Shown: piece by piece, positions 7,979 through 53,000 of the stretch
Layout: each line of letters opens with the position of its first letter
Numbering within the stretch: position 1 is the stretch's first letter
NCBI GenBank assembly: GCA_964622275.1
Contig: CAZUMX010000002.1
Span: 3,247 to 58,199 of the forward strand
Length of the DNA: 54,953 nucleotides
Source: an uncultured Candidatus Saccharibacteria bacterium
Lineage (GTDB): Bacteria; Patescibacteriota; Minisyncoccia; Phycocordibacterales; UBA6899
Reading direction: 5' to 3'
The notes under the pieces: generated by a model
Database searches by the model: none
Told to the model about the DNA's origin: nothing
The model's input: the letters and a program-made list of their open reading frames with translations, nothing else
Program-made: the position numbers and the translations under genes

Positions 7979-8013
7979 GCCTTTACAAACTCTGTAAAGG
8001 CTTAACCTTTTGG
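7967..8013. repeat. REP-like palindromic element, copy 3 (one mismatch in a 21-bp stem)
   Basis: CCAAAAGGCTAAGCCTTTACA-aactc-TGTAAAGGCTTAACCTTTTGG. The loop and polarity match copy 1, and it overlaps the RAYT 3' end. Confidence 0.85.
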
Positions 8014-8068
8014 ATTGGAATGGGGAAAGAGAGAAAGAATTCTAAGGACGGGGTGGTAAAATCAGAAG

Positions 8069-8992: not shown

Positions 8993-8995
8993 TAT

Positions 8996-11491: not shown

Positions 11492-11504
11492 TAGCTTAGT
11501 GTAC

Positions 11505-12344: not shown

Positions 12345-12405
12345 ATGTAATGGCATTGTACAATATATATGGCTTTTTGCCCCACTCTTCATATCTTTAG
12401 ACGAC

Positions 12406-13395
12406 ATGGATGTCTCGTTACAGAAAAAAATTGGCATAGCTTTTTTATTGATCCTCGGAATGACCGGAGTATGGTGGTGGGGAGTGTATTCAGAGCGAAA
12501 CTCAGAATTATCTCATCACCAGTTTACTCAATGTCATCGAACCTACAACCTACTAGATAAGTCTCTTGATTGTGAACGTGTTGATGATGTTGCTACGCAA
12601 ATCTCTGGCCTTGAACAGCATGTCTCAGAGATTATTGAGAAAAAGAAAAAAGAAAAATTGGTCAGTAGGGTAGGTGTTTTTTACCGTGACCTTACTACTC
12701 GGCGGTGGTTTGGGATTAACGCTGACGCAGAATTCTATCCTGCCAGCCTTGCGAAGCTTCCGCTCGGCATCACATACTTTAAGGTTGCTGATCTTGAACC
12801 TCAAGTCCTTGATCAAGTTCTTCCACTTACGATACAAAAAGAATACACAAACGAAGGTCAAAAAGTCAGCGTGGACAGCCCAATGGTTCCAGGACAGAGT
12901 TATTCCGTTCGTCGCATGATAGAAGACTTACTCGAATACTCTGATAATCGACCCATCGGACCACTCCTTAGTTTTATGCGCCAAGATGTGTGGAAGAAGG
13001 TGTATGCGGACTTTGGTATTCGTAAACAAAAAGATAATGGGGAAGAAGAATGGTCGGTGACACCTCGAGTGATCTCAAACGTCCTACGTTCACTCTATAA
13101 CGGATCGTATTTGGATTTAGGATCATCCCAAGAACTCCTTGAGATCATGACCCGGGCACGGTATTCGCGAGGAATTGTCGCAGGGGTAGACCACGATGTT
13201 CTTGTTGCGCATAAGTTTGGTGAAGCGACCATGGTGGAGGCAGATGGTTCGTATACCCCAACCCTCCATGACTGTGGGATTGTCTATAAGCCTGATGCGC
13301 CGTATATCCTTTGCGTTATGACGGAAGGAAAAGACTTTGCTCAACTTGAGTTCGCTATTGCTGAAATATCCAAAGTGGTGTTTGATGCCCAGTAA
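12406..13395 (+). CDS. Class A beta-lactamase-like serine hydrolase with N-terminal membrane anchor
   Basis: The three active-site motifs are SxxK (ASLAK), SDN (EYSDNRP) and a KTG variant (HKFGE). I moved the start to MDVSLQKK (nt 12406), which precedes the TM segment IGIAFLLILGMTGVWWW. Confidence 0.65.
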   Translation: MDVSLQKKIGIAFLLILGMTGVWWWGVYSERNSELSHHQFTQCHRTYNLLDKSLDCERVDDVATQISGLEQHVSEIIEKKKKEKLVSRVGVFYRDLTTRRWFGINADAEFYPASLAKLPLGITYFKVADLEPQVLDQVLPLTIQKEYTNEGQKVSVDSPMVPGQSYSVRRMIEDLLEYSDNRPIGPLLSFMRQDVWKKVYADFGIRKQKDNGEEEWSVTPRVISNVLRSLYNGSYLDLGSSQELLEIMTRARYSRGIVAGVDHDVLVAHKFGEATMVEADGSYTPTLHDCGIVYKPDAPYILCVMTEGKDFAQLEFAIAEISKVVFDAQ

Positions 13396-31930: not shown

Positions 31931-32260
31931 TTATCGCAGCGGGTAATTTTCGCACACTACTCGGTGCGGGGCTGCGCAACCCCATCACCGTACATGAGTA
32001 CGGCTCCGGGGTATGCTCGCCTCCGACACCTTCGTATTGCATCGAAAATTCCACCACTGCGACTTCGTGGTGGTAATACCTCGGACATCTCGAACTGTAT
32101 CCAATTTTGAAAGCCCTTTTACTGTGGTGTTGTCACGAAAATTCCACCACTGCGATCTCGCTGCCTAAGCCATCGCACTGCATCCGAAATCCCATCCTTG
32201 CAACCGACGTGCGGAAATGCTCTGGCACCTCGAACTGTATATGACTGCGCTTCTGTGGTA
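31931..32260. other. ORF-free, GC-rich, highly structured region with repeated 20-mer and 12-mer motifs (candidate ncRNA or MITE-like remnant)
   Basis: The identical 20-mer cgaaaattccaccactgcga occurs at 32043-32062 and 32136-32155. An inverted relative, tcgcagcgggtaattttcg, lies at 31934-31952. The 12-mer ctcgaactgtat occurs at 32089-32100 and 32229-32240. Hairpins lie at 31962-31990, 31988-32003 and 32051-32073. Confidence 0.4.
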
Positions 32261-32261
32261 A

Positions 32262-32304
32262 TCAAAATAAATAACCGCCGGGACCTTTTCGGATTCCGGC
32301 GGTT
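32262..32304 (-). terminator. Rho-independent terminator for the 81-aa minus-strand gene
   Basis: AACCGCCGG...CCGGCGGTT stem. On the minus strand it is followed by TTATTTATTTT. Confidence 0.6.
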
Positions 32305-32319
32305 CGGGTTGCCTTCGCT

Positions 32320-32565
32320 CTACTTCAAGAGCTCAGGAGGAATTTTATCGCATGGGACATGGGCAAAAGCCTGTCTTCTACTACGATCCGTGCCCACCGC
32401 AAAGCAAAGATCGTTTCGCGGGTCCTTCGCGTAGACGATCTGATCGATAATTTCTTGGCTACGAATTCGTCTTTCCTTGTCTGTTGGACTGCGAAAAATC
32501 AAAAAAACAGTAATCAGTATGGCGATGACGAAACAGAGCGCCCCCAATAATGAGTCTCTGTCCAT
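32320..32565 (-). CDS. Small hypothetical membrane protein
   Basis: 81-aa ORF with one TM helix (LLGALCFVIAILITVFLIF) and its own terminator. Confidence 0.4.
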   Translation of the reverse strand: MDRDSLLGALCFVIAILITVFLIFRSPTDKERRIRSQEIIDQIVYAKDPRNDLCFAVGTDRSRRQAFAHVPCDKIPPELLK

Positions 32566-32681
32566 AAATCTCCTCCTCAGTTGTGAAGGTGCAGTACAGA
32601 AATATTATATACTTTTTACTGCATATTGTCAAGACTGGAAAACGTCCCAAAATTCTCGTGTTTCCTTGATACAATAGACTC

Positions 32682-33215: not shown

Positions 33216-34544
33216 ATGAGCGTCGAAAAGAAAAAAATGAAGCCGTTTCAGCTTGCGATTTTTATCATCGCTATTGTCATTGCTGTCGTTGCTGTTGGAG
33301 TCTTTTCAAAATCAGATCGTTCACAACAAAAGCAGGGGAGTGGTGAGGTGAATTATGGTGCAGTAAGCGTTTGGGGGACGGTCCCAAATAATCAAGAGGT
33401 GGCGAAGATTTTTAAGGAATTTAATTCTACATATACCGATCAGGTTTTTGCTTCCTACGTATATGTTCCGCCTGAGGATTTAGAGCAAAAATTACTCGAA
33501 GCACTCAGTAATGAGCAGGGGCCAGATGTACTTATTTTGCCGCTCGAATGGCTTCAAAAAAACATTCTCCGTATTGTTCCTATTGGCTATGATCCGCAAA
33601 AAGGAGGAATCAGCCAGAGAGAATTCAAAGACACGTTTACTCAAGCAGGAGAAGTATTTCTCTATCCTGAAGGCATTATGGCCCTCCCACTTGCGATTGA
33701 TCCGTTGGTGATGTATTGGAATCGTGATCTGTTCTCAAATGCAGGAATTGTCACCCCGCCAACTACATGGAAAGAAGTCCTCACGCTCACAAAAACGCTC
33801 ACAAAGAAAAAAAATCTCGATATTACTCAAGGTGCGATAGCTCTTGGTGAATATGAAAACGTGGTTCACGCAAAAGATATTTTGTCGCTGATGTTTCTTC
33901 AAGTGGGAGTTCCCATCACACAGATAGGTTCTGGGGGAAAACTTTTGAGCACGCTGGGAACATATCCCGCTGTCGCTCAAGCCGTAAGATTTTATACAGA
34001 TTTTTCAAATCCGCTGAAGAGTAGTTATTCTTGGAATCGTTCCCTCCCTTCATCGCAAGAAATGTTCTTGAGTGGAGATCTTGCGATGTACGTTGATTTT
34101 GCAAGTGTGAACAAGACACTCCTCACCAAAAATCCACGCCTCAATTTTGATCTCGCCCCAGTCCCACAAACAGAAGGGCAAGAAACTTTTGTGACATACG
34201 GCAAGATTCACGGAATTGCCGTGCTCAAAAGAGGAAAGAATACCCCTGGAGGTGTGGCCTTCTCAAAATTATTTGCAGGGAAGAAGTATGCTGATGTGTT
34301 TGCAAAAGCAGCGGGGCTAGCGCCAATGCGACGAGACCTTCTTTCTGTTCCTCAGTCGGACGCATTTACTTCCATTTTGTACAGCGCTTCGCTTCGAGCG
34401 AGAAGCTGGATTGACCCGCAACCCATTCAGACTGACTCAATTTTTGCGAGGATGATTAACAGCGTTCTCTCTGGAGAAAATACACCTGATATTGCGGTGA
34501 CCAAAGCCGATCTTGAAATTAATTCTCTCTTGCAACCTAAGTAA
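33216..34544 (+). CDS. Membrane-anchored extracellular solute-binding protein (family 1-like), orphan
   Basis: An N-terminal TM helix (FQLAIFIIAIVIAVVAVGVF) is followed by a MalE-like layout. No permease or ATPase gene is nearby. The gene starts 3 nt after the methyltransferase and ends 7 nt before pilin 1. Confidence 0.6.
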   Translation: MSVEKKKMKPFQLAIFIIAIVIAVVAVGVFSKSDRSQQKQGSGEVNYGAVSVWGTVPNNQEVAKIFKEFNSTYTDQVFASYVYVPPEDLEQKLLEALSNEQGPDVLILPLEWLQKNILRIVPIGYDPQKGGISQREFKDTFTQAGEVFLYPEGIMALPLAIDPLVMYWNRDLFSNAGIVTPPTTWKEVLTLTKTLTKKKNLDITQGAIALGEYENVVHAKDILSLMFLQVGVPITQIGSGGKLLSTLGTYPAVAQAVRFYTDFSNPLKSSYSWNRSLPSSQEMFLSGDLAMYVDFASVNKTLLTKNPRLNFDLAPVPQTEGQETFVTYGKIHGIAVLKRGKNTPGGVAFSKLFAGKKYADVFAKAAGLAPMRRDLLSVPQSDAFTSILYSASLRARSWIDPQPIQTDSIFARMINSVLSGENTPDIAVTKADLEINSLLQPK

Positions 34545-34551
34545 TGTCTCT

Positions 34552-34968
34552 ATGAGGTCTTTGATGAAATCTTCAGTTGTATTTCTCGCACTGTTCGCAG
34601 TCAGTATGCTTCCTCTTGTCGCATTTGGACAGGGACTTGTTCCGTGTGATGGAACTCGGGTAAACCCTTGTACCTTTGAGATGTTTATTACGCTAATCCA
34701 GAATGTTCTCAAGTATCTGATTTACACCATTGCAACCCCAATTGCGGCTATTATGTTTGCTTATGCGGGCTATCTATACATGACAGCTGGTGATGAAATG
34801 GGGAATATCAAGAAAGCTCATGATATCTTTATCTCAGTGTTGTGGGGATTTGGTGTGATGCTTATTGCGTGGGCATTAGTATGGTTCATTATTACGTTCT
34901 TCACTGGTGATAATAGTGAATACAATCTGCTCCAAGCTCCGAATGCAGCGGCACAAGCTCAACCATAA
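34552..34968 (+). CDS. TrbC/VirB2-like T4SS-pilin-family protein, paralog 1 (subfamily A)
   Basis: The signal peptide ends LVAFG|QG. The mature part carries GLVPCDGTRVNPC, two TM helices and the loop motif YAGYLYMTAGDE. I moved the start to ATG 34552, downstream of the SBP stop. Confidence 0.7.
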   Translation: MRSLMKSSVVFLALFAVSMLPLVAFGQGLVPCDGTRVNPCTFEMFITLIQNVLKYLIYTIATPIAAIMFAYAGYLYMTAGDEMGNIKKAHDIFISVLWGFGVMLIAWALVWFIITFFTGDNSEYNLLQAPNAAAQAQP

Positions 34969-34974
34969 AGACGT

Positions 34975-35340
34975 ATGTATACATTCATCGATTACTTCCG
35001 CATGTTCCGTCTGTTTTGGGTGAGTATGCTCATGTGTGTTGGTCGCATGGCAATCGCTCAGGGAACATACCCGAACCCTCTTCAGAATATTGGTGTCACA
35101 ACACTCCCACAGTTTTTTGCTAAAGTTCTCGATGGGTTTTCGCTCCTCCTGATGCCGCTCGTAGTGATCTTTATTATTTATGCAGGATATCTTTTTGTGA
35201 CAGCACAAGGAGAGGAGAGTCGCATTCAAAAAGCACGTACCGCACTCTGGTGGACAATTATAGGGACGGGGGTCATTATCGGAGCAAGACTCATGGCGAA
35301 TATTTTGAGCGACACCCTCTCCCAGCTAAACCAAGTATGA
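34975..35340 (+). CDS. T4SS-pilin-family protein, paralog 2 (subfamily A)
   Basis: The signal peptide ends MAIA|QG, with motif YAGYLFVTAQGEE between two TM helices. Confidence 0.65.
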   Translation: MYTFIDYFRMFRLFWVSMLMCVGRMAIAQGTYPNPLQNIGVTTLPQFFAKVLDGFSLLLMPLVVIFIIYAGYLFVTAQGEESRIQKARTALWWTIIGTGVIIGARLMANILSDTLSQLNQV

Positions 35341-35684
35341 TCATGCGCATTCTTTCAAGTATTCTGGTGGCATCTGCTCCATTTGTGGCGTGGGCGCAAA
35401 ATTACGATGGACCACGACTTGGAAATCCTGTCGCTCGCATTATGCAGCCAGGGAATCTCATTGATCTCTTGATCACGATTATCCAATTCCTTGGTGGCCC
35501 CATTGTTGTCCTTGGAATTATTTATGCCGGATACAACCTCGTGACTGCTCAGGGAGAAGAGCGCAAGCTCGACACAGGGAAGAGGGCGCTCCTTTGGGTG
35601 ATTGTGGGGGCGGCGATCATTCTTGGAGCGACGATTATCAAGAATATTGTCGGCAATACGTTTACAGACATTTTTGGCGCTTAA
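35337..35684 (+). CDS. T4SS-pilin-family protein, paralog 3 (subfamily A)
   Basis: The start ATG overlaps the paralog 2 stop (ATGA). The signal peptide ends FVAWA|QN, with motif YAGYNLVTAQGEE. Confidence 0.65.
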   Translation: MIMRILSSILVASAPFVAWAQNYDGPRLGNPVARIMQPGNLIDLLITIIQFLGGPIVVLGIIYAGYNLVTAQGEERKLDTGKRALLWVIVGAAIILGATIIKNIVGNTFTDIFGA

Positions 35685-35699
35685 CGATATACTGTATTT

Positions 35700-36065
35700 A
35701 TGATGACTCGATTTCGGACTTTCTTCTACACTCTTTCTGCTCTAGTCGCCCCTCACCTGGCTTTTGCGCAGGTTCCGCCAACTGATTTCAGAGGGGTTGT
35801 CGAGCTGGTATTAAAGTTTCTTCAATGGATCACCGCACTCGCATGGATGCTCCTTTTTATGTCTTTTGTCTATACGGTCATTAAATTTCTTCTAAATTTT
35901 GATGACGAACGAGCACGCGAGGAAGGGAAGCGTTCCATGGTCTTTTCGCTTGTTGCGACAGCAGCGGTCTTTATGGTGTGGGGGATTATTTCTTTCCTCA
36001 CTCGATCTGTGTTTGGTCTTGGGGGATTTGGAATCCCTGTGTTAACTCCGCCTACAAACCCATGA
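35700..36065 (+). CDS. T4SS-pilin-family protein, paralog 4 (subfamily B)
   Basis: The signal peptide ends HLAFA|QV, with motif KFLLNFDDERAREEGKRSMVF...VWGIISF. Confidence 0.65.
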   Translation: MMTRFRTFFYTLSALVAPHLAFAQVPPTDFRGVVELVLKFLQWITALAWMLLFMSFVYTVIKFLLNFDDERAREEGKRSMVFSLVATAAVFMVWGIISFLTRSVFGLGGFGIPVLTPPTNP

Positions 36066-36430
36066 TACATCGAACTCTCATTCTTGCTGTTCTGTTACTG
36101 ATCGCTTTTCCTGCTTTTGCTCAGGCTCCTACTGATGTTTTTGGACTTCTCTCTCTTGTGATGCGGTGGGTAAGCAGTATTTTCCCCGTCCTCATTGGAT
36201 GTATCGTTGTTGTTATTTTTTGGAACCTTTCGCAATTTGTGCTCCACGCAGACGACGAAAGAGAACGATCAAAATACAAGCAGTTTATGATTTGGAGCGT
36301 GGTTGGCATGTTCCTTATTTTGTCATTTTGGGGAATTGTCTACGCTATTACAAATTCATTTTTCGGATCGACGGGGAACCCTCTCCTCGAGAATCCAAGA
36401 TATATGGATAAAAATGGCCGTATTTTCTAA
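36062..36430 (+). CDS. T4SS-pilin-family protein, paralog 5 (subfamily B)
   Basis: The start overlaps the paralog 4 stop (ATGA). The signal peptide ends FPAFA|QA, with motif QFVLHADDERERSKYKQFMIW...SFWGIVY. Confidence 0.65.
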   Translation: MIHRTLILAVLLLIAFPAFAQAPTDVFGLLSLVMRWVSSIFPVLIGCIVVVIFWNLSQFVLHADDERERSKYKQFMIWSVVGMFLILSFWGIVYAITNSFFGSTGNPLLENPRYMDKNGRIF

Positions 36431-36446
36431 TCAATCAAATATCTTT

Positions 36447-36785
36447 ATGACGAGATTCTTCTTAATAATTTTAACCCTATTCGTTCCTGTTACCGTCTTT
36501 GCTCAGACACAAATACCACCACGACTCATCACGTTGATGGGGAATATCTACAATGTGATCCTCAACCCAATCATCGCACTTCTTTTCGGTCTTTCATTTG
36601 CGTACTTTATCTGGGGTGTGGTCAAGTTTGTTTGGTATGGTGAAGAAGAGTCTATGAGGAGCGAAGGGAAAAGGTCCATTGTTTGGGGCATAATAGGGAT
36701 GTTTATCATGTTTAGTGTTTTTGGGATATTACGCCTGATTATTGGCACTATTGGGGAAAATCCGAGTGTTTTGTCTGGTGTCTAA
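36447..36785 (+). CDS. T4SS-pilin-family protein, paralog 6 (subfamily B)
   Basis: The signal peptide ends VTVFA|QT, with motif KFVWYGEEESMRSEGKRSIVW...SVFGILR. The start is taken at ATG 36447. Confidence 0.65.
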   Translation: MTRFFLIILTLFVPVTVFAQTQIPPRLITLMGNIYNVILNPIIALLFGLSFAYFIWGVVKFVWYGEEESMRSEGKRSIVWGIIGMFIMFSVFGILRLIIGTIGENPSVLSGV

Positions 36786-36794
36786 AAAATAGAA

Positions 36795-36816
36795 ATATGG
36801 CTCTATAAAGCCATAT
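36795..36816 (+). terminator. Weak hairpin after pilin paralog 6
   Basis: ATATGGCT-ctataa-AGCCATAT, with only a partial T-rich tail. Confidence 0.3.
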
Positions 36817-36984
36817 AATCAATTTTCCATCTTTTCTTTGTGTGGATAACCCTTGCTTTATAAAAGAGAACAAGGATAGAATAGATAGGTACATTAACAT
36901 AAGGTCGATAGACGGGTATCCTGTCTTTTAGGCATTATATTACAACATATTATTAATATTTTTTTTGGGAAATCTTCATTTTGT

Positions 36985-37356
36985 ATGAAAAAAATCCTTA
37001 CCGGTGCTCTTCTTGCCGCAGCAGTTCTTCCTATCGTTGCTTCGGCTCAGTTTACTGATTTTGACACAGCCCTCTCTACGGTTGTTCGTTGGATTCAGCG
37101 TATTATTCCATTTATCCTTCTTCTTGCGACCCTCTATTTCTTCTGGGGTCTCACCAAGTTTATCCTCAATGCAGGAAACGAGGAGGCACAGGGTCAGGCA
37201 AAGCAGATCATGATCTGGGGTGTCGTGGCAGTTTTCGTGATGGTATCATTCTGGGGTCTCGTCGGGTTCCTCTCACAGACCTTCCGTCTCGATAACAACA
37301 CGGTGAATGTTGTGAACGCGCCAACAGGAATTGGAAACGTGGTTCCAACAATCTAA
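36985..37356 (+). CDS. T4SS-pilin-family protein, paralog 7 (subfamily B), separately transcribed
   Basis: The signal peptide ends IVASA|QF, with motif KFILNAGNEEAQGQAKQIMIW...SFWGLVG. It has its own 200-nt AT-rich upstream region and a strong terminator. Confidence 0.7.
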   Translation: MKKILTGALLAAAVLPIVASAQFTDFDTALSTVVRWIQRIIPFILLLATLYFFWGLTKFILNAGNEEAQGQAKQIMIWGVVAVFVMVSFWGLVGFLSQTFRLDNNTVNVVNAPTGIGNVVPTI

Positions 37357-37380: not shown

Positions 37381-37405
37381 ACCGCCTTAGGGCGGTTTTT
37401 TGTTT
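37381..37405 (+). terminator. Rho-independent terminator after pilin paralog 7
   Basis: ACCGCC-ttag-GGCGGT followed by TTTTTGTTT. Confidence 0.75.
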
Positions 37406-37410: not shown

Positions 37411-37452
37411 AATAAAAATCCCGCTATAGTCATCCTTGACCATAGCGGGATT
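37411..37452 (-). terminator. Rho-independent terminator of the SPFH-like operon
   Basis: AATCCCGCTAT...ATAGCGGGATT (11-bp stem, 14-nt loop). On the minus strand it is followed by TTTTTATT. Confidence 0.65.
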
Positions 37453-37484
37453 CACAAACCGCTTCCCAATCTCTTTATGTGAAA

Positions 37485-39689: not shown

Positions 39690-42600
39690 TTATGCCTGCG
39701 TATGTGTGCGAGTCACTTTTGTTCTATGTCGGTAGTAGAGGACAGGAATGTATACGAGGGTGAGGAGAAGTGAGTATGAGAGTCCAAACATGATCGCAAA
39801 GGCAAAAGGCCCCCATAACGCTGAAGAGAATGAGAGTGGAATCATGCCGAGCACAGTGGTGATCGTCGTGAGAATGATTGGTCGAAAGCGTGTTGCTGAA
39901 GCCTCAATAACAATTTCTTTCAGATTGTGTTGTGCATTATCGCGTTCTTCAAATCGTCGGTATGAGTCCATAAGGATAATGGCATGGTTGATGATCACTC
40001 CGCCTAATGCGATGACTCCAAGCATGGACGTGAATCCCAGCGGCTGGCCCGAGAAGAATAATCCAAAGAATACTCCCGCAAGCGAAAGAGGGACGATACG
40101 CAGGAGATAGAACGCGTAACGGAATGAGTTAAATTCCAAAACAAGAATGGCAAGCATAAGAATCATGCCAATAAGAAATGCGAGGAGCATGTCACGGAAC
40201 GAGTTTTGGATATCTTCGGTTTCTCCACCCGCCTTGAGAGTGACTCCGTTTGGTAGTCCTTGTGCGGCAAGAGTGTCGGTGAGTTCTTTGGTGATTTTGC
40301 TCGCGTTTCCGCCCTCGGTGGTGTATGCGCTGACGGTGACTTGCCGAGTACGATCTTCATGAGCAATCACTTTTGTGTTACGGGTGAGCGCGAGAGAGAG
40401 GAAGTTGCCCAGAGCGACATTTCCACGGGGTGTTGGGATTTGGATGTTTCTGATTGTGTCAGGGGATGTGTTCGTGGTCTTTGTTGCATCTGTAAATCCT
40501 GGATCAAGAGCGAGTTTCACCACAACATCAATATCATCATCTTTGTTCTTGATGACCGTTGCGGTAAGTCCGTTGACTGCTGCGCGTAGGGTTTGCGCGA
40601 CAAGCTGTGCAGAGACTCCGTATTCTGCTGCCTTTGCTCGATCGATTGAAAATGAAAATTCAGTAGACGCATTATCGGTTGATGCCGAGATGTCTTTTGT
40701 TCCAGGAATGCGAGAAAGAATATCCTGTGCGTTGTTCGCAGCTGTTTCTAATGAGCCAAAGTCGTCTCCGAGAAATTGAATAGATACTGGAGCCGAGCTT
40801 GGTGGACCATTGTTGATTTGGAGGACGGTAATCTTCGCCTCCTTGATAGGCAGGAGAGCTTTTCTCACAACCTCAACAACTTCTGTGCTCGATAGGGAAG
40901 ATTCTTTATCAAGCTTAGCGACAATATTTGAGAATTTTGCCCCCACGCTTATTGCCCCACCCGCACCACCAGTGAAAGAGTTCGATCGTCCGATCGTTGT
41001 TGCGAAACTTTTAATAGCGGGCTCTGTATACAATACTTCTTCAACTTTTCGTGTGGTAATGTCTGTCTCTTCTAAAGGCGTGCCTTCTGCCTTCTCAATA
41101 TCAATGAGAATAAAGTCTTGTTCATCTTGTCCGAAGAAGATGGCTTCTACAAGGCCAGTGATGGGAAGAAGAAGTCCAAGAATAAAGAGAAACGTCACAC
41201 CACGGAGAAACCATTTCTCTGTGCGTTCGTGCCCAAGGAATTTTCGCAAAAAGTTTTTATACCATTCTTTGGAGCGTTCAGAAATTTCTTCCTGAAATCG
41301 TTCGGTTTCTGTGTGTTCATGTTGCCCGCCCTTCATGAAGCGTGTCGCAAGATAGGGGAGGAATCCGAGAGCGACAAAAATTGATGCGATAAGAACAAGA
41401 ATAATGGTATAGGGAATCGTGGCAACAAACTTCCCAACAATGCCAGAGAGGTTGAGAAGTGGAACAAACACCGCAATGGTGGTGAACGTTCCCGCAATGA
41501 GTGGCCACGCATATTCTTCAATGGAAGCCACTGCAGCGTCCTCAATATTCTTATATTTCTCTAGCCGAGAGTGAATAGCCTCTATCACGACAATTCCAAT
41601 ATCGACAAGGATTCCAATCGAGAGGATCAGCGAGAAAAGTGTCATGAAGTTAATGGTTTTTCCGCTGGTGTAGAGACCAAAGAATGCAATGAGAAATGAG
41701 AGTGGAACAGAAATTGATGCAATGAGCGCTTCTTTCCAGCCGATGGTAAGAAAGAGGACAAGAGCGACGAGAATCATTGTCTCTATACCTGTCTTGGTGA
41801 GGTTGGAGATATCTTTACGAATCTGGTCCCCCTCACTATAAATAGTGAGAGTTTGAGATCCCCCAAGTATTCCAGATTTAAGTTCTTCAATTTTTTCTTC
41901 AACCCCAGATGCGACTTTCAAGATATTTGACCCAGAGGTTTTATAGACATTGAATGTTAATGCCTGCTCAGACGGGGCTTTGTCTACTGAGATTCGAGAG
42001 AGCGATGATGATTTTTCAACACCGTCAGAGATTAAAGCGACATCACGAAGGTAAATCACTTGCCGTGCTGGCGTGGAGAGTGGTACCCCCATAAGCTCCT
42101 TAGGATCTTTAAGATCACCAACGAATCCAACATTGTAGTCCACTCCTGCGGTAGTGATTGTCCCTACTGGGAGTGCGGTGTTTGCGGAACGGATTGCCCC
42201 GATAACATCAAGGAGAGAAAGCCCATAATCGGCGAGTTTTTCCTTTGAGACAACAACCTGAACTTCACGTTTTCGATCTCCAGCGATCTCGACTTTTCCA
42301 ACTCCCGAGACACCCTTGAGTTCGTCTTTTACCGTGCGTGCGAGGGCGGTGAATTGTTGTGGTGCGAGATCTGACGATAGGGAAAAAATCAAAATAGGCT
42401 GGTCAGCGAAATTTACCTCAGACACCTCTGGGTCCTCTGCTCCATCAGGGAGTTCAGATTTTGCTTTATCCACAGCGTCTTTGAGCTCCGCAATAGATTT
42501 ATCAATATCCGCATCAGCGGTGAATTGAACAGAAATGACCGACACATTCTCTCGGCTTGACGACGTGATCTTGTCGAGCTTGGGGACATTTGCTAGCCCC

Positions 42601-42809
42601 GCCTCAAGTGGGTTTGTGACGAGTGTCTCAATGTTCTCGCTAGATGCACCCGGGAAAACCGTGGTCACGATACCAAGAGCAATTTTAATTTCTGGAGCTG
42701 ATTCTTTTGGGATCAGCAACATTCCGGCAAATCCCGTAATGACTGACGCAATAATGAGCAAAGTGGTGAATTGCTTTTTTTGAAGGAAAAATTTCCAAAG
42801 TGGAATCAT
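39690..42809 (-). CDS. RND-family efflux transporter permease (AcrB-like)
   Basis: 1039 aa with a 12-TM layout and two large extracytoplasmic loops. The N-terminus is AcrB-like (LLIIASVITGFAGMLLIPKESAPEI). Confidence 0.88.
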   Translation of the reverse strand: MIPLWKFFLQKKQFTTLLIIASVITGFAGMLLIPKESAPEIKIALGIVTTVFPGASSENIETLVTNPLEAGLANVPKLDKITSSSRENVSVISVQFTADADIDKSIAELKDAVDKAKSELPDGAEDPEVSEVNFADQPILIFSLSSDLAPQQFTALARTVKDELKGVSGVGKVEIAGDRKREVQVVVSKEKLADYGLSLLDVIGAIRSANTALPVGTITTAGVDYNVGFVGDLKDPKELMGVPLSTPARQVIYLRDVALISDGVEKSSSLSRISVDKAPSEQALTFNVYKTSGSNILKVASGVEEKIEELKSGILGGSQTLTIYSEGDQIRKDISNLTKTGIETMILVALVLFLTIGWKEALIASISVPLSFLIAFFGLYTSGKTINFMTLFSLILSIGILVDIGIVVIEAIHSRLEKYKNIEDAAVASIEEYAWPLIAGTFTTIAVFVPLLNLSGIVGKFVATIPYTIILVLIASIFVALGFLPYLATRFMKGGQHEHTETERFQEEISERSKEWYKNFLRKFLGHERTEKWFLRGVTFLFILGLLLPITGLVEAIFFGQDEQDFILIDIEKAEGTPLEETDITTRKVEEVLYTEPAIKSFATTIGRSNSFTGGAGGAISVGAKFSNIVAKLDKESSLSSTEVVEVVRKALLPIKEAKITVLQINNGPPSSAPVSIQFLGDDFGSLETAANNAQDILSRIPGTKDISASTDNASTEFSFSIDRAKAAEYGVSAQLVAQTLRAAVNGLTATVIKNKDDDIDVVVKLALDPGFTDATKTTNTSPDTIRNIQIPTPRGNVALGNFLSLALTRNTKVIAHEDRTRQVTVSAYTTEGGNASKITKELTDTLAAQGLPNGVTLKAGGETEDIQNSFRDMLLAFLIGMILMLAILVLEFNSFRYAFYLLRIVPLSLAGVFFGLFFSGQPLGFTSMLGVIALGGVIINHAIILMDSYRRFEERDNAQHNLKEIVIEASATRFRPIILTTITTVLGMIPLSFSSALWGPFAFAIMFGLSYSLLLTLVYIPVLYYRHRTKVTRTHTQA

Positions 42810-42814
42810 ACAGA

Positions 42815-44527
42815 TTATTGTGCTATCACTTCAATGCTCTGGTTGGGGCGCAGTCCACGGGCATCACGGACAATCTCAGTCAGTCCTGAAAGACCAGAAA
42901 GGATGGTCACTCTATCTCCCAAGAGGGGACCAAGAACCACTGGATGTTCTTCGAGCGTGCTGCTTGCAGTCACAGTAAAGACCACCGCACGATCTGCGTA
43001 GAGCTTTACAGCAGAAAGGGGAAGGGTCGCTGGGTTGTTTGTGGACAGTGATACTTGCCCTGTTCTCTCAATGGACACGCTAATCGATGTTCCGTTGATG
43101 AGGGTTTTATTTGGGTCGGTAAGCGCAATGCGGACTTCCGCAGATTTGGTAATTGGATCAATTCCTGGCGAAACACGAGTGACGACTCCTTCAAGACCTT
43201 TGTCTGTTGTTACACGTGTGCCAACTCGGATTGACGGAATATCATCCGCAGTAATTGATGCTTTAACCTCACTTCCTGATGTGTTTGTGATAGAGGCGAC
43301 AAGAGTTCCTGCGGGGATGGATTCTCCAACGTCCGCAACAAGTGAATTAATCGTTCCAAAAATAGGAGTACGAATAATGGTTTTCTCCCATCCTGCAAGG
43401 GCAAGAGCATATGCTCCTTGCGCCTGCTTGAGTCCAGCACGAGCTTGGAGAACATCTTCTGCGCGAGCAGGGGTCATTCCTTGCGAAAGATTTGCTTCAG
43501 CGACCGTGAGGGCCGTTGTCTTTCCCGAGAGGTCCTGGATGGTTCCAGAAATAGTCTGAAGATTTCCAGAGAGTATTTGCTGCGCTGCGCTGACTGTTGC
43601 CGAAGATCCACTAATTGCGCTTTGGGGCTGGTTTGTCGAAGGAATAGCCTGATTCATTGCACGGAGTACGCTATCGATGAATGAGAGGAGAGTTCTCGTC
43701 TCTGTTCGTGCACGCTCGAGCTCAAGAGTGAGGTCCATCGAAGGGGAGAGCTGCGCAGCTCGAGCAGCTTGATCATTCAATATTTTTTCGATGACAGGTC
43801 TTGTGTTCTCGATTTCTCCCTCGAGTCGCGAATCGCTTGTATTATAGATAAATTGCGGCGCACTTGTGCGTGGGTTTGTGAATACACTATCGACTTTAGC
43901 ATGAATAGCATCGTCATTTCCGATATAGAGCGTCTTGAGTGTGTTGACGGTGTTTTCTTTCGTTGCATCAAGCGCAGTCTGCGCCCCTGCTTTACTCGCC
44001 TCAAGGATACTCAGTGTTTCAGTGCGACTTCCATTTTCGACTCGTGCCAATGCTGCTCTTGCTGACTCCAGTGCCCCCTCTGCTTGAAGGAGTCCAGCAC
44101 GTTCTCTGGCATTGTCGAACTCAACGAGTACTTCTCCTGCGGCGACTCGGTCTCCCGCACGGCGATTGACGCGAGTGACACGTCCTCCCATGTCTGTACG
44201 AAGATCCGCACGTTCAAGTGCGCTGACTTCTCCTACAAGGTTTAGGGGACCAACAGCACCACTTTCTTCAGAGAGAGAAAGGAGTGAAACTTGTCTGAGT
44301 GACGAAGCCGCCTCATTGTCGTCTCCAGAGGGGACGATGCGCATGATTGTTGTCACCAAAAGCAACAGAATCAACCCGACGAGAGGAATTCTCCAATAGA
44401 GTTTCTTTGGTGCGAACATCCAAGAGAAAAAACGCTCGAGTTTGGAACGGAGCATATTCCAGGATAGGTTTTGACGGAGTGAACGAAGGGTGGATTTGAT
44501 ATGGTGAAGCATAAGATACGCACGCAC
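42815..44527 (-). CDS. RND periplasmic adaptor (MFP/HlyD family), unusually long
   Basis: It has the lipoyl-like motif GRVTRVNRRAGDRVAAGEVLVEFD, a long Ala/Leu/Gln helical hairpin region and a beta-barrel C-terminus. The gene ends 5 nt before the pump start. The start codon is uncertain. Confidence 0.75.
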   Translation of the reverse strand: MRAYLMLHHIKSTLRSLRQNLSWNMLRSKLERFFSWMFAPKKLYWRIPLVGLILLLLVTTIMRIVPSGDDNEAASSLRQVSLLSLSEESGAVGPLNLVGEVSALERADLRTDMGGRVTRVNRRAGDRVAAGEVLVEFDNARERAGLLQAEGALESARAALARVENGSRTETLSILEASKAGAQTALDATKENTVNTLKTLYIGNDDAIHAKVDSVFTNPRTSAPQFIYNTSDSRLEGEIENTRPVIEKILNDQAARAAQLSPSMDLTLELERARTETRTLLSFIDSVLRAMNQAIPSTNQPQSAISGSSATVSAAQQILSGNLQTISGTIQDLSGKTTALTVAEANLSQGMTPARAEDVLQARAGLKQAQGAYALALAGWEKTIIRTPIFGTINSLVADVGESIPAGTLVASITNTSGSEVKASITADDIPSIRVGTRVTTDKGLEGVVTRVSPGIDPITKSAEVRIALTDPNKTLINGTSISVSIERTGQVSLSTNNPATLPLSAVKLYADRAVVFTVTASSTLEEHPVVLGPLLGDRVTILSGLSGLTEIVRDARGLRPNQSIEVIAQ

Positions 44528-46278: not shown

Positions 46279-46337
46279 AAGGACAAGTGTATCATTGCTC
46301 GCCAATGTCTGCTTTGAAATGGTACAATCTTCGCTAT

Positions 46338-46748
46338 ATGGATCAAAAAACATCTTATATTGCCGCTGCGGTTATCGGCATTCTTCTTATTGGTGGTTTT
46401 GTATTTCTTGGTTCACAAGGGGGATTTTCAAAGCCTGCCCCAGTAGAAAACGCATCTGTGACAGCATTCGCAACATGTCTGAAGGAAAAAGGAGCGACAT
46501 TTTATGGAGCATTCTGGTGTCCGCACTGCCAGGCTCAAAAGAAGCTCTTTGGCGCTTCTGCAAAAGACCTTCCTTATGTTGAGTGTTCAACACCAGACGG
46601 GCAAGCTCAACTGCCAATTTGTAAAGAAAAAAATATCAGCTCTTACCCAACATGGGTATTTGCTGACGGAACAATCTCCACAGGGGAGTTGACCTTCGAG
46701 CAGCTAGCCGAAAAGACGGGGTGTACCGCTCCTGTCATTGGATCATAA
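46338..46748 (+). CDS. Membrane-anchored thioredoxin-fold protein (CxxC)
   Basis: An N-terminal TM helix is followed by FYGAFWCPHCQAQKKLFG. The start is taken at MDQKTS (46338). Confidence 0.7.
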   Translation: MDQKTSYIAAAVIGILLIGGFVFLGSQGGFSKPAPVENASVTAFATCLKEKGATFYGAFWCPHCQAQKKLFGASAKDLPYVECSTPDGQAQLPICKEKNISSYPTWVFADGTISTGELTFEQLAEKTGCTAPVIGS

Positions 46749-46767
46749 TAGTGGTATTAGCCTAGGT

Positions 46768-47349
46768 ATGACTGAGCAGGCTCAAATTGCCACGCAAATT
46801 CTTGTATTTCTCACCTTGGCGATGGATGTGCTCATCGTGCTTTTGGTTGGGTGCTGGATTTTTGCAAGACATTGGCTCTACCAGGTTTTTCGTGCATCTC
46901 CTCTCTGCGCAAGATGCATTGCAGCACTCTGTGCACTCTGTGCTCTTGTGGGCAGTATGATCTATAGCGCTGTAACGGGTTTCGCCCCGTGCCCACTGTG
47001 CATTACGTCAAGAATTCTTGTGGGGCTTCTTGTTGTGACACTTCCACTTCCTTCACTGAGACCAAGTCTTGAGGGGGTAACTCATCGTTTTGGGATAGCG
47101 TTTTCTATTCTCGGTATGTTGGTCAGCGGATACCAATATGTCCTCCAGTGGATGGCGCTCACGGGAACACATCTCCCATGCCCAGCGATTGAAGGACTTC
47201 CGACATGTGACCGCATATATTTTATTGAATTCGGATTTGTCACTATTCCATTTGTGGCATTCTCAACCTTTGTTCTTATCTTTGTGTTGCTCGTGCTTCA
47301 CAAAAAGACTTCGCCTAGTGCACCAGCCGCTGAATCAATCGGTCAATAA
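46768..47349 (+). CDS. DsbB/BdbC-like disulfide bond formation protein
   Basis: It has four TM helices. The first Cys pair is APCPLCITSR and the second is LPCPAIEGLPTC. The start is taken at MTEQAQ (46768). Confidence 0.55.
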   Translation: MTEQAQIATQILVFLTLAMDVLIVLLVGCWIFARHWLYQVFRASPLCARCIAALCALCALVGSMIYSAVTGFAPCPLCITSRILVGLLVVTLPLPSLRPSLEGVTHRFGIAFSILGMLVSGYQYVLQWMALTGTHLPCPAIEGLPTCDRIYFIEFGFVTIPFVAFSTFVLIFVLLVLHKKTSPSAPAAESIGQ

Positions 47350-49833: not shown

Positions 49834-50005
49834 ACCTACTAAGCATCTCCCTCATTCTGAGGTGTGTCAATATAATAAGAAATCTTTTAAGAACAAAGTC
49901 AATAGTGACAGGCGATAGGATGGTGTTAGCATGATCACCAGCTTTCCGATCTTTGGGTTCACGTTCTCGTGCTCGTGGTTGAGCGCTACTCATTATTTAT
50001 AGATA

Positions 50006-50032
50006 CAGCAACACCGGGTTGCTGGGTTTTTT
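50006..50032 (+). terminator. Terminator-like hairpin 15 nt upstream of the giant gene's start codon
   Basis: CAGCAAC-accgg-GTTGCTG followed by GGTTTTTT. No plus-strand gene ends immediately upstream. Confidence 0.4.
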
Positions 50033-50046
50033 ATCTCTTTCGCATT

Positions 50047-53000
50047 ATGAAGAAAGGACAACTTGTGCGTGGGTCAAAGACCCTCGGGCTTTTTGTTATT
50101 GGAACTGTGCTTCTCGCACAGGTTTTTGGTGGTGCTATTTCTATAGCATCTGCGCAATCAGAAGTTACACAGCCCGACAACACTCAGGTTGTAGAACCAT
50201 CGCCAGCCCCTGCGCCAGAAGCAGTATCACAAGATGCTCTCACCCCTGACGTTTTAGAAGAAGCTCCTCAACCAATTGTCGAGCAAACTCCTGAACCAGC
50301 CCCAGTACCAGAAGCGCCTCCTGCTCTCGATACGCCAACAGATGTTCCTTCTGAGGTTGTAGAACCTACTCCAACGGAGGAGCCAGCTCCTATCTCGCCC
50401 GATGTTCCACCCACCACAACCGATGATTCAACCACCATCGAGAACGGTACTTCACAGACCCAAGATCCATCTACTACCGAAGAGACCATAGTTCCAGCAG
50501 AAGACACGCAAGTCGCTGCAGTCTCTCTTCCAGAACTCTCGACCGAAAAGGATGACTACCACCCAGGAGAGACCGCAACTATCTTTGGCCGCTTCTTTGG
50601 CGCATTTCAGCAAGTATTTTTGAAGATATTTGGTGACGATGGAAATGGTGGAAACTATACCGAGTCAACACAAGAAGTCACTGCCGATGAAAACGGGTCT
50701 TTCGTCACAACGTACGTACTCGAAAATATCTATCGACCTCTCTATACCGTAGTCGCAAGTGCGCTTTCAGGCGAAGAAATTACTCGTGTGACATTCACAG
50801 ACAGTACGAGTGGGCCAAATAATGCTGGGGCAGGAGCGAATGTGAATGGTCCTGGTACTGGAGGGTCATGGACAAATACCGGAAACATACTTGCGGATGA
50901 TACAAACTATGCAACGGTGACGATCGGAACCAATGGCACTAGTGAATATCTGCAGGCGACAAATTACGGATTTTCCATTCCAGCTGGAGCGGTAATCAAC
51001 GGAATTCAGGTAACCCTTGCGCGACAGAGTTCATCAAACACTGGGGGCGCGAGTACAAATGATGCAGACCTCAATCTCCTAAAGGGAGGAGTGATAGTAG
51101 GTACAGATAAGGCGGTAACTACGGATTGGCCCACGACCATGACCCCCACAACCTACGGTGGAGTTGCAGATCTATGGGGAACCACATGGACTCCCGCAGA
51201 TATCAACGCATCCAACTTCGGAGTCTCTCTTTCTGTTCTAAATCAGAGCGGTTTTTCAAATCGCACAGCATCAGTCGACTATATTCAAATCACAGTCACT
51301 TACACACTTCTTCAACCTGACCTTACCATCACTAAATCAAATACCGTTGGTGGCGTTGCGGGTCTTGGTGGTTCATTCAATTGGCAGCTCTTAGTGTCGA
51401 ATACCGGAAACGCATCGTCGACGTTTGCCGTCGGACAGACGCTCATGACAGATCAGCTTCCAACATCAGGTGCAACATATGGCTCGCCCACAGTTGGTTC
51501 AACTGCAACAACGGGAACAGTAAATTGCTCTATTGTTGGTACTGATTTGGGTTGTACTGCGGGAACCAGTGTCGTCATTCCTCCGGGAGGAACGGTCACT
51601 GTGACTATTCCCGTTACTCCTACAAACACGGGGACACTGACAAACCCATTTTCTGGTGGTGTATGTTCTGTTGACCCAAACAACGTCATCACAACTGAAA
51701 GCAGCGAAGGAAATAATTCCTGCACGTCAAACTCAGTCACTGTGAGTGTGTTGCCAGATCTTATTGTGACAAAGACGAATGATCTTGGCGGAGAAAATGC
51801 TGTCGCAGGAACGCCATTTACCTGGTCGATGGCAATCGCAAATACTGGTGGAGCAACGGCGACATTTGGTCCAGGGTTCTCTGTGTTCCGTGATAGTCTT
51901 CCTGCCACAACAACCGCATCATACGGAACACCAACGGTGACTTTTGAAAACGGTGTGACAGGTGTGGTGAACTGCACCATTCTTCCCACCAATACGCTTG
52001 AGTGTACGACAGGGGGGAGTGTCGTGATCCCGACAGACGGAATCATTAATATTTCTCTTCCCGTTACTCCACTTGTTTTTGGCTCGCTCATAAACCCTCG
52101 TGCAGGAGGGGTATGTGTTGTTGATCCTACTGGAGTGGTGACTGAGACGAATACAACAAACAATGGGTGTGCGGATAGTGTGAGTGTGGCTGACCCTGTT
52201 GCTCCAACCGTTGTTTCCATCAATCGTGCATCAACATCTCCATCAAACGCGACAAACGCAGTGTGGTCTGTGGTCTTCAGTGAGGGAGTGACAGGTGTGA
52301 ATGCAGCAGATTTCACTCTTGTGAATGGAGGTCTTACTGCACCAGCAATTGCGACGGTCACAGGGACAGGAACAACATATACTGTGACTGCTTCAACGGG
52401 TGGTGGGACTGGGACGCTTGGCCTCAATCTTATTGATGATGATTCTATTCGTGACTCAGCCAACAACATGCTTGGTGGAAGTGGCCTTGGAAACGGGAAC
52501 TTTACAGGTCAGGAATACACGATTGACCGTGTTGCCCCAACGGTTACTGTCAATCAGGCTGTTGCTCAAGCGGACCCTACGAATATTGGATCAGTCGTCT
52601 TTACTGTCACGTTCAGTGAGCCTGTGAATGGGTTTGCTACAAACGACATTACGATCGGCGGAACAGCAGGAGGAACAAAGACCGCAACCATCTCTACAAC
52701 AAGCGCGACGACTTTTGATGTCACAATCACCTGGGCACCGTCGACCGCAGGAACAGTGACGGCATCCATTGCAGCAAGCCGCGTCACTGATGCTGTTGGG
52801 AACAGCAACACCGCATCAACGTTCACCGATAATACGGTTCAGTACAATCTTCCGACATACAATATCACGTCGAGTGCAAGCACGGGCGGGACAATTACCC
52901 CGAATGGAACAACACCAGTTTCGCTGAATGCAAATCAGGCCTATAGTAGTGTTCCGAGTGCGGGGAATATTTTGAATCAAGTGATTGTTGATGGCATTGC

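Follow-up and report, generated by a model that had tools for sequence, protein, structure and literature searches.

Why seven pilin-like genes should stand in a row with no secretion machinery beside them is the question raised by positions 34552-37356 of the window (the whole stretch of DNA that was analysed, 54,953 nucleotides). Each of the seven tandem ORFs, all on the + strand, encodes a VirB2-like pilin according to the ORF calls and the reading of the sequence. Multi-gene pilin arrays are already described in CPR/Patescibacteria, and no new kind of system is present here. A total of 441 arrays with 2-11 divergent VirB2-like pilin genes were reported in Patescibacteria by Quinonero-Coronel et al. 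in 2025 (PMC12102498), and the six-pilin array of Southlakia epibionticum was essential (PMC10633639, PMC12857230).

Organization of the pilin array

The array, the gene ahead of it and the elements around its last member were located as follows.

33216-34544, + strand: orphan solute-binding-protein gene, 442 aa, N-terminal membrane anchor, PF01547 SBP_bac_1 (Pfam E=1.4e-17)
34552-34968, + strand: pilin P1, 138 aa, A-type, first position; signal peptide ending in ...VAFG↓Q (arrow, cleavage site), then GLVPC-x7-C
34975-35340, + strand: pilin P2, 121 aa, A-type, YAGY...TAQGEE motif
35337-35684, + strand: pilin P3, 115 aa, A-type, the most TrbC/VirB2-like of the seven
35700-36065, + strand: pilin P4, 121 aa, B-type
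36062-36430, + strand: pilin P5, 122 aa, B-type
36447-36785, + strand: pilin P6, 112 aa, B-type
36786-36984, + strand: AT-rich P6-P7 spacer, 199 nt, 28.6% GC against 44% in the coding array
36841-36849, - strand: perfect DnaA-box-like 9-mer, TTATCCACA on the - strand, which is TGTGGATAA on the + strand
36985-37356, + strand: pilin P7, 123 aa, B-type, monocistronic in this lineage, candidate major subunit
37381-37405, + strand: intrinsic-terminator-like hairpin after P7, ACCGCC-TTAG-GGCGGT, then the T-run TTTTTTGTTT
37416-37453: second hairpin, 17 bp, serving the convergent - strand gene

An alternative start of P2 is possible at 35002, and for P6 the gene callers in relatives favour the equivalent of 36414. 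No clear Shine-Dalgarno sequences were seen ahead of the array ORFs. Two ATGA overlaps, between P2 stop and P3 start (35337-35340) and between P4 stop and P5 start (36062-36065), had been read in the first-pass annotation as translational coupling, and both were found in the sequence. Such stop/start codon overlaps imply co-translation, and the subunit stoichiometry may be fixed.

Within the array the paralogs were mutually 17-35% identical, compared with a reported mean of 25% in like arrays of Patescibacteria. Such arrays are recognised by at least two tandem divergent chromosomal pilin genes (Quinonero-Coronel 2025; Wang 2023), and seven are present here. The GLVPC-x7-C stretch described earlier for P1 was also recovered; a Cys pair was found in 42 of 79 first-position pilins in related species, compared with 73 of all 484 pilins, and a disulfide is probable in P1.

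Pilin family, signal peptide and predicted fold

Membership in the TrbC/VirB2-like pilin family, proposed from the sequence, was borne out by Pfam. All seven proteins passed the gathering threshold of PF18895 T4SS_pilin (26.6 bits), P1 to P7 scoring 31.2, 33.8, 27.7, 30.2, 40.7, 29.7 and 42.3 bits, with the best score for P7. The threshold of PF04956 TrbC/VirB2 (27.9 bits) was passed by P3 (32.7 bits), while P1 (22.2 bits) and P5 and P6 (about 14 bits) were sub-threshold and P2, P4 and P7 gave no match to this profile. The first array gene of a Zambryskibacteria relative also passed PF04956, at 31.0 bits.

As far as sequence comparison can tell, the likeness to classical VirB2 is at the profile level only. 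Alignment to VirB2 by hhalign was colinear from the cleavage site and not significant (E=0.26), and a tblastn search of 72,556 plasmids gave no match. When PDB sequences were searched with a profile, unspecific membrane-protein matches and no pilin were returned, and Foldseek, by which short hairpins are poorly discriminated, gave no match in the PDB at E <=0.001.

The seven cleavage contexts listed in the first-pass annotation (AFG↓Q, AIA↓Q, AWA↓Q, AFA↓Q, AFA↓Q, VFA↓Q and ASA↓Q) matched the sequence exactly, and Gln was the sole invariant column of the seven-way alignment. Among 484 related pilin ORFs, position -1 was Ala in 264 of the 297 aligned and position +1 was Gln in 185 of 299. Cleavage of the pilins by a signal peptidase would follow this motif, from which it is deduced. 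A signal peptide with two transmembrane helices had been claimed for all seven. By hydropathy this stood for P1, P3, P5, P6 and P7, which had an N-terminal hydrophobic segment and two long hydrophobic stretches, and was incomplete for P2 and P4, which had no called N-terminal segment at the threshold used, P2 having one stretch only. The seven-way alignment supports the plan of a signal peptide and a two-helix hairpin, and the AlphaFold2 model of P7 (helices 2-22, 26-61 and 66-99; pLDDT 79.6) was a hairpin.

Conservation and gene order in related species

The comparison set was composed of 79 related Paceibacteria species, and GyrA identity and synteny with such relatives place the present array in the same class. 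The same seven-gene arrangement exists in the sister species (GCA_964409985.1) with 84-91% nucleotide identity, and dN/dS between the two was 0.02-0.09 per paralog (P1 0.08, P2 0.02, P3 0.05, P4 0.06, P5 0.08, P6 0.07). All seven paralogs are thus, on these substitution rates, under purifying selection. By their Pfam matches, the array of the sister species and these dN/dS values, the pilin genes are real.

Arrays of the 79 species had 4-10 pilin genes, mostly 6-7, and the A-type (TrbC-like) genes were ahead of the B-type genes in 78 of 79 loci, as with P1-P3 and P4-P7 here. The division into two subfamilies suggested earlier was therefore kept in relatives, together with its order. Position-specific orthologs persisted class-wide, the P6 ortholog in relatives being a short terminal pilin located after the P7-type gene. 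Between genera the pilins were 30-47% identical, against 70-75% for GyrA.

Natural fusions with 2-16 hairpins per protein were also found, one of them within an array; this points to paralogs acting next to one another. A protein with as many as 16 hairpins fits poorly with a classical single-subunit polymer.

The P7 unit

Promoter-like hexamers and a hairpin (36795-36816) occur in the AT-rich spacer ahead of P7. In 78 related arrays the junction before the P7-type gene was the sole wide one (median at least 99.5 nt), with medians of 1.5-21.5 nt at the other well-sampled junctions, so the earlier statement that P7 has an upstream region of its own is borne out in relatives. The terminator claimed after P7 could likewise be read in the sequence, as a hairpin with a T-run.

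A DnaA-box-like TTATCCACA was kept about 99 nt upstream of P7-type genes. The perfect 9-mer was present at 12 of 78 loci (0.5 expected), and the 9-mer with at most one mismatch at 34 of 78 (5.4 expected). Altogether 36 perfect 9-mers were counted in 1.23 Mb of related loci, of which 17 were upstream of a pilin ORF and three more within over-extended 5' ends of pilin ORFs.

Among the seven paralogs P7 had the lowest dN against the sister species (0.007), and at longer evolutionary distance its conservation was no higher than that of P1 or P6. P7 is the probable bulk or major subunit.

Solute-binding-protein gene and neighbourhood

The solute-binding-protein gene ends 7 nt ahead of P1 and is likely the first gene of the pilin operon. 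In 70 of 81 loci a homologue immediately precedes the array; the gap has a median of 2.5 nt, and 4-nt overlaps are frequent. The dN/dS of the gene against the sister species was 0.02. The closest solved relatives of the product are maltose/trehalose-type sugar binding proteins, while neither ABC permease nor ATPase was detected near the gene by Pfam scan of the window ORFs.

In the window as in its Paceibacteria relatives, the array lies downstream of gyrA. The neighbourhood is of housekeeping type (gyrA, bipA, RNase J, pth, S1), its chromosomal synteny was kept in about 60-70 species, and the array has the GC content of its flanks. An IS200-like transposase gene is 27 kb from the array. Since synteny extends to gyrA, a methyltransferase gene and further housekeeping genes, the linkage of the solute-binding-protein gene may partly reflect general conservation of gene order.

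Probable location of the T4SS core

No VirB4, VirD4, VirB6 or relaxase domain, and no Pfam match to a coupling protein or integrase, was obtained in the 55 kb window when all ORFs of at least 150 aa were scanned, in agreement with the earlier statement that T4SS machinery is missing from it. Within 10 kb on either side of the array no VirB4-like ORF was found in the 79 related species. That this absence is a puzzle, as the first-pass annotation implied, could not be maintained. VirB4 was reported in 2,417 of 3,035 Patescibacteria assemblies, but pilin genes were near virB4, that is within about 20 CDS, in only 1,135 of 1,948 assemblies, and about 40% of the VirB4-positive ones have distant pilins (PMC12102498). 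Table S1 of that paper scores four out of six relatives that share the operon as VirB4-positive; the two negative ones are the smallest assemblies (384 and 444 kb), thus probably incomplete. A T4SS core elsewhere in the genome is therefore the expectation and not an anomaly.

Proposed mechanism and alternative explanations

The seven proteins are probably co-assembling major and minor pilins of a Patescibacteria T4SS, the core of which is encoded elsewhere in the genome. Each pilin would be exported by Sec, with signal peptidase I cleaving behind A-x-A, and the mature form would stay in the membrane as a two-helix hairpin of TrbC/VirB2 topology, with both ends outside and an acidic-then-basic loop on the cytoplasm side. 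The seven would be produced together as non-redundant subunits, P1-P3 serving as TrbC-like A pilins and P4-P7 as B pilins, with P7 as its own transcription unit. A T4SS core of the MPF-FATA-derived Patescibacteria type (VirB4, TrsD, VirB3/PrgI, possibly VirB6), located elsewhere on the chromosome, would pull the pilins from the membrane, and these would then build a heteromeric pilus or envelope-spanning conduit for host-cell contact. We infer processing, co-assembly and the need for the distal VirB4; the essential array of Southlakia epibionticum suggests, by analogy, that the pilins act at the host interface. No filament built of such pilins has been seen in any Patescibacterium; the solved pili of Mycosynbacter consist of Ig-fold Pam pilins, which are unrelated to the array pilins.

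The pilin fold could instead be reused without VirB4, the solute-binding protein and the hairpins forming a heteromeric membrane assembly, for example a pore or stub for capturing sugars or other nutrients of host origin. The translational coupling of the solute-binding-protein gene to the first pilin, the lack of VirB4 near the arrays, the two relatives entered as VirB4-negative and the fusions, which look like polytopic membrane proteins, all give a hint in this direction. However, the two negative assemblies are the probably incomplete ones, the housekeeping genes are syntenic too, and arrays of the same kind adjoin VirB4 in Microgenomatia and Saccharimonadia. On balance such a T4SS-independent device is unlikely.

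Tandem VirB2 genes occur in Bartonella and Anaplasma as several consecutive copies, as here, and host-range or antigenic variation was proposed for these paralogs. For Patescibacteria, too, Quinonero-Coronel et al. (PMC12102498) suggested that the paralogs are alternative major pilins, only one being in use at any time, and the low identity both among the paralogs and between genera, where GyrA is far better kept, would suit this idea. But the copies here are anciently diverged, position-fixed and under purifying selection in every paralog, their stop/start overlaps imply co-translation, and the fused forms express several hairpins together. The fixed A-before-B array and the natural multi-hairpin fusions favour a co-assembling heteromer, and we regard a variation set as rather improbable.

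It is very improbable that the array belongs to an integrated mobile element and supplies its ordinary conjugation pilins, a reading to which the PF04956 and PF18895 membership and the IS200-like transposase gene could point: the housekeeping context is syntenic, GC content does not depart from the flanks, the window has no Pfam match to a relaxase, coupling protein or integrase, and relaxases are uncommon among Patescibacteria (109 in 3,035 genomes; PMC12102498). Chance ORFs or mis-called genes, which short hydrophobic products without clear Shine-Dalgarno sequences might suggest, are refuted by Pfam scores above threshold, by dN/dS well below 1 and by an array pilin profile that matched 58,313 family representatives.

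Comparison with known systems

Like the arrays of Southlakia epibionticum ML1 (six pilins) and TM7x and the 441 of Quinonero-Coronel, the present array encodes tandem divergent PF18895/PF04956 paralogs, is chromosomal, is without relaxase and belongs to a monoderm CPR bacterium. Unlike the published arrays near virB4, it lies outside the virB4 neighbourhood, as do those of its 79 Paceibacteria relatives, and is joined operon-like by the solute-binding-protein gene, a link without counterpart in known T4SSs.

With A. tumefaciens VirB2, RP4 TrbC and F TraA the array pilins share a long signal peptide, an Ala-ending cleavage context with Gln at +1 and a two-helix hairpin of about 70-90 residues. 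The A↓Q context is common to the array pilins and A. tumefaciens VirB2 (AAA↓Q48; the sequence used was 100% identical to annotated virB2), and the A-type members match classical TrbC/VirB2 at the profile level. In contrast to the classical systems, to which no significant pairwise similarity was seen, the host is monoderm, the genes are not beside VirB4, and seven paralogs are present instead of one major pilin and VirB5.

The Mycoplasma ICE pilin-like protein (NF045849, Mbov_0395 family), which like the array pilins belongs to a monoderm MPF-FATA-type system, was weakly matched by P7 (E=2.4e-5, 24 bits) and P1 (E=3e-4, 20 bits), well under the 40-bit cut-off, giving a lead on origin and not membership.

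In type IV pilus pilins, PilD cuts a class III signal peptide (G↓F/M-x-x-x-E), and the only hydrophobic helix is N-terminal. This candidate was rejected, since neither a class III signal peptide nor G↓F...E5 was found, and A-x-A↓Q with two post-signal helices was seen where the scan resolves them. Fold and processing differ, the predicted cleavage here being of signal-peptidase-I type, and type IV pilus operons are comparable by analogy only, in having one abundant and several low-abundance co-transcribed minor subunits in fixed gene order.

Significance for Patescibacteria

The A-before-B order, the coupling to a solute-binding-protein gene and the DnaA-box-like motif are additions to the published survey (PMC12102498), which has its emphasis on Microgenomatia and Saccharimonadia, does not describe these three features and mentions neither gyrA nor solute-/substrate-binding. 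As a long shot, the array and the coupled sugar-type solute-binding protein might form a heteromeric envelope conduit that takes up host-derived molecules, with a fixed subunit order (A at base or tip, B in the shaft) and with the bulk-subunit gene switched by DnaA via the TTATCCACA box, with or even without distal VirB4. If this were true, the DnaA switch would couple the building of this host-contact organelle with the replication cycle.

Few envelope machines have been shown to be indispensable to the epibiotic lifestyle of a cultured Patescibacterium, and the T4SS with its pilin array is one of them. In Paceibacteria, the largest class, an A-before-B array of 6-7 genes, detached from virB4 and joined to a solute-binding-protein gene, is the norm. 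Its gene order, its solute-binding-protein coupling and its DnaA-box-like element provide testable constraints for the structure and regulation of the Patescibacteria T4SS.

Pilin genes and their products

Seven tandem pilin genes, as proposed in the first-pass annotation, were confirmed as + strand ORFs at 34552-37356 (P1 to P7 in order), and the identification of their products as VirB2/TrbC-like pilins was supported. All seven products exceeded the gathering score of the T4SS_pilin profile PF18895 (27.7-42.3 bits against 26.6), and P3 was also above that of the TrbC/VirB2 profile PF04956 (32.7 against 27.9). Each pilin has a leader that is basic, then hydrophobic, with a small-x-small end, and the cleavage contexts AFG/Q, AIA/Q, AWA/Q, AFA/Q, AFA/Q, VFA/Q and ASA/Q were all found as claimed. 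The Gln after the predicted cut, present in 7/7, is the sole invariant column of the seven-way alignment, with pairwise identities among the paralogs of 17-35%. The plan of two TM helices held for P1, P3, P5, P6 and P7, each with an N-terminal segment and two long stretches, and was incomplete for P2 and P4 at the hydropathy threshold used. The loop between both hydrophobic stretches has the form (G/D)(D/E)E...K/R. ATGA overlaps were present at the P2/P3 and P4/P5 junctions.

Chance ORFs were rejected, since the identical seven-gene array exists in the sister species (JGI metagenome contigs and MAG GCA_964409985.1) at 84-91% nucleotide identity, with a dN/dS of 0.02-0.09 per pilin gene (Nei-Gojobori).

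Genes for a thioredoxin-like and a DsbB-like protein lie at 46287-47349, 9 kb downstream of the array; the pair are candidate disulfide formers for the C-x7-C motif of P1.

Spread and order of the array

A scan of one genome per GTDB species returned 80 loci, among them Zambryskibacteria, Wolfebacteria, Nomurabacteria, Campbellbacteria and Paceibacteria/Parcubacteria. The query alignment consisted of P7 homologues, since the full set of 24 sequences was too diverse for locus scanning. With an HMM of the seven window pilins, a tandem pilin array was found at essentially every scan locus, usually of 6-7 genes and mostly of 4-10. Searched with a profile, 1.84 billion cluster representatives yielded 58,313 family members (E <=0.001), so the pilin family is very large and already established.

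Related arrays were labelled with two subfamily HMMs, A from P1-3 and B from P4-7, and the claimed division into two subfamilies was retained, with every A gene ahead of every B gene in 78 of 79 loci. The labels read AABBBB in 36 loci and AABBBBB in 15, and the TrbC-like members are the A-type genes. Best-hit mapping in three closer genomes gave positional orthology for P1-P4, P7 and P6. A Cys pair was found in 42 of the 79 genes at first position, compared with 73 of the 484 related pilin ORFs overall. Among these 484 ORFs the residue at -1 was Ala in 264 of 297 aligned, and that at +1 was Gln in 185 of 299. One array (L013:6781-8796) is headed by a 671-aa protein, possibly a pilin-adhesin fusion, whose N-terminal part is a large extracellular region and whose C-terminal part is a pilin hairpin.

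Many MAGs titled "Saccharibacteria" equal Zambryskibacteria in synteny and in GyrA identity to the window (63-70%). The synteny and GyrA identity shared with Zambryskibacteria place the window in the class Paceibacteria. Dozens of TPA MAGs named "uncultured Candidatus Saccharibacteria bacterium" (L009, L011-L016 and many CAY*/CAZ* entries), which match Zambryskibacteria and Wolfebacteria in gene order and GyrA identity, are probably mislabelled Paceibacteria.

Genes around the array

A Pfam scan of all ORFs >=150 aa in the window revealed an ordinary chromosomal region with gyrA, bipA, RNase J, pth, S1, a P-type ATPase and CorA, together with an AcrB/HlyD pair, DsbB, two solute-binding proteins and two giant surface proteins. 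No tRNA or Rfam family was found within the window. Features of the region are as follows.

71-6346: beta-helix (NosD-like) protein, 2,091 aa
7271-7978: IS200-like Y1 transposase gene
31931-32681: unannotated gap of ~750 nt between gyrA and the methyltransferase/SBP/pilin run
33216-34544, + strand: orphan, membrane-anchored, sugar-type solute-binding protein (SBP) gene, directly upstream of P1
37485-39495, - strand: two convergent genes right after the array
39690-44527, - strand: full-length AcrB-family RND pump (E=8e-182) and HlyD-type fusion protein
49969-54600: Ig-like surface protein, 1,543 aa

An SBP_bac_1 gene stands directly upstream of the first pilin at 70 of 81 loci, where it is, as read from the sequence, translationally coupled to that pilin; the gap has a median of 2.5 nt, and 4-nt overlaps are frequent. 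The closest solved relatives of the SBP are maltose/trehalose-type binding proteins, and neither an ABC permease nor an ATPase was found near its gene. The gap after gyrA is retained as a gap in the sister species.

Of the ORFs after the array, that of 284 aa encodes a polytopic membrane protein confined to this genus, and that of 409 aa is weakly SPFH/Band-7-like; such proteins follow the array in ~45 related loci. The AcrB/HlyD pair, which here stands in a presumed monoderm CPR genome, is present in the sister species and was not seen beside the array in other relatives.

The P7 unit and its spacer

The first-pass annotation gave P7 an AT-rich upstream region and a strong terminator of its own. 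The P6-P7 spacer is indeed 199 nt long with 28.6% GC, against 44% in the coding array, and downstream of P7 stands ACCGCC-TTAG-GGCGGT, with TTTTTTGTTT after it. A separate P7 unit is borne out by related arrays, in which the junction ahead of the P7-type gene is wide too (median at least 99.5 nt, IQR 73-119, n=78) and is the only wide one, the other well-sampled junctions having medians of 1.5-21.5 nt. In relatives the P6 ortholog is placed after the P7 ortholog; the P6/P7 order is swapped in the window lineage, which makes P7 monocistronic there. At genus-level distance P7 was not conserved above P1 or P6.

The DnaA-box-like motif TTATCCACA is frequent in the P7-type spacer, ~99 nt before the ATG, and is conserved in the equivalent spacers across Paceibacteria (L010-L088). 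The window copy is as follows.

36841-36849: putative DnaA-box-like element, perfect copy, in the spacer upstream of P7

The perfect motif was found in the P7-type spacers of 12 of 78 loci (0.5 expected), and the motif with <=1 mismatch in 34 of 78 (5.4 expected). The related loci, 1.23 Mb in total, contain 36 perfect boxes. About half of them, 17, are located upstream of a pilin ORF, and a further 3 lie within over-extended 5' ends of pilin ORFs.

Relation to classical VirB2/TrbC pilins

VirB2/TrbC pilins in the membrane pool form a hairpin, with the termini outside and the loop inside. The window pilins share the A/Q cut context with A. tumefaciens VirB2 (AAA/Q48), for which the comparison sequence was 100% identical to annotated virB2 genes. 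In hhalign the pilin alignment was colinear with this VirB2 from the cleavage site, at a level that was not significant. A tblastn search with P3 against 72,556 plasmids gave no match, and a PDB sequence-profile search for solved pilins gave only GPCR and cytochrome b noise. The best Foldseek match of the P7 model in the PDB was likewise not significant (E=2.4), a short helical hairpin being poorly suited to this comparison. Without a sequence link to solved pilins or plasmids, homology to classical VirB2/TrbC rests on the A-type Pfam profile matches.

P1 (34552-34965) and P7 (36985-37353) also gave sub-threshold matches to NF045849, the Mbov_0395 pilin-like conjugal transfer protein of Mycoplasma ICEs. 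Monoderm MPF-FATA systems are usually stated to lack VirB2-like proteins; the NF045849 matches hint that they may possess their own.

Probable location of the T4SS core

The window was confirmed to be without T4SS machinery: the Pfam scan of ORFs >=150 aa gave no VirB4, VirD4, VirB6, relaxase or integrase domain, and NCBIfam gave no match when the five unannotated window ORFs (356, 227, 307, 409 and 284 aa) were searched for T4SS parts. Related species agree: none of 79 has a VirB4-like ORF at 10 kb or less from the array, and the Walker-A ORFs of >=550 aa near related arrays are only ClpB, AcrB and UvrA.

The puzzle implied by the first-pass annotation, pilins without a T4SS, does not stand, for Patescibacteria offer documented precedent, including detachment from virB4 (PMC12102498). 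Quinonero-Coronel et al. 2025 applied PF04956 and PF18895 to 3,035 Patescibacteria genomes and found VirB4 in 2,417 of the assemblies; VirB2-like pilins occurred in 1,948 VirB4-positive assemblies, near virB4 in 1,135 only (PMC12102498). In the same study relaxases were rare, and Paceibacteria virB4 was located near dnaA/dnaN (PMC12102498). One core locus reads VirB2-x-VirB4-TrsD-VirB3. Six genomes with related loci are in Table S1 of PMC12102498; four are VirB4-positive (GCA_001824255.1, GCA_001824295.1, GCA_001825395.1 and GCA_002787695.1), and the two negative ones are the smallest assemblies, 384 and 444 kb. The T4SS core of this clade is evidently encoded elsewhere, which most likely resolves the apparent anomaly. 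A pilus-like conduit has been speculated for the Patescibacteria T4SS (PMC12857230). The "novel pilus system in CPR" preprint was rejected as precedent because its Pam pilins are unrelated and of Ig-fold, and Meheust 2019 deals with type IV pilus pilins, not with PF18895-type pilins.

Natural multi-hairpin fusions

The top profile matches were single proteins in which one signal peptide precedes 2-16 pilin hairpins (PF18895), for example P0021, P0025, P0035, P0051, L090:1777-3435 and L089:8001-13328. P0021 has six hairpins and stands within a tandem array, replacing the B-type run, and the 1,775 aa of P0035 hold 16. When a three-hairpin fusion was modelled with AlphaFold2, the hairpins were resolved, with disordered linkers of ~30 residues between them, and their relative packing was unreliable (pTM 0.46). 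The 16-hairpin protein of L089 (GCA_975902405.1, genes ~6572-13328) adjoins genes for ribosomal protein L39e and a Cas4/Csa1-like protein. These neighbours suggest an archaeal, possibly DPANN-like, host, and from this context the pilin family may extend beyond CPR bacteria.

Proposed assembly and meaning

The pilins would be exported by Sec and then processed by signal peptidase I. A hairpin whose two ends lie outside and whose charged loop lies inside, the VirB2/TrbC membrane-pool arrangement, is the best-supported reading of the sequences and the AlphaFold2 model on what is known of that family. The paralogs would be produced jointly and co-assemble as non-redundant subunits, likely several minor A-type and B-type subunits with one bulk subunit. 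An interchangeable set of variants is argued against, since every paralog is under purifying selection, positional orthology is ancient, stop and start codons overlap and natural fusions join several hairpins; the same four points argue for joint production and co-assembly. We infer that the pilins co-assemble, that P7 is the major subunit and that they depend on a distal VirB4.

Published arrays and their detachment from virB4 make this locus a further instance of a described phenomenon. No description of the A-before-B order, the SBP coupling, the DnaA-box-like element or the multi-hairpin fusions was found in the Patescibacteria pilin/T4SS papers examined, and with these four features, the order being class-wide, the locus is slightly above routine.
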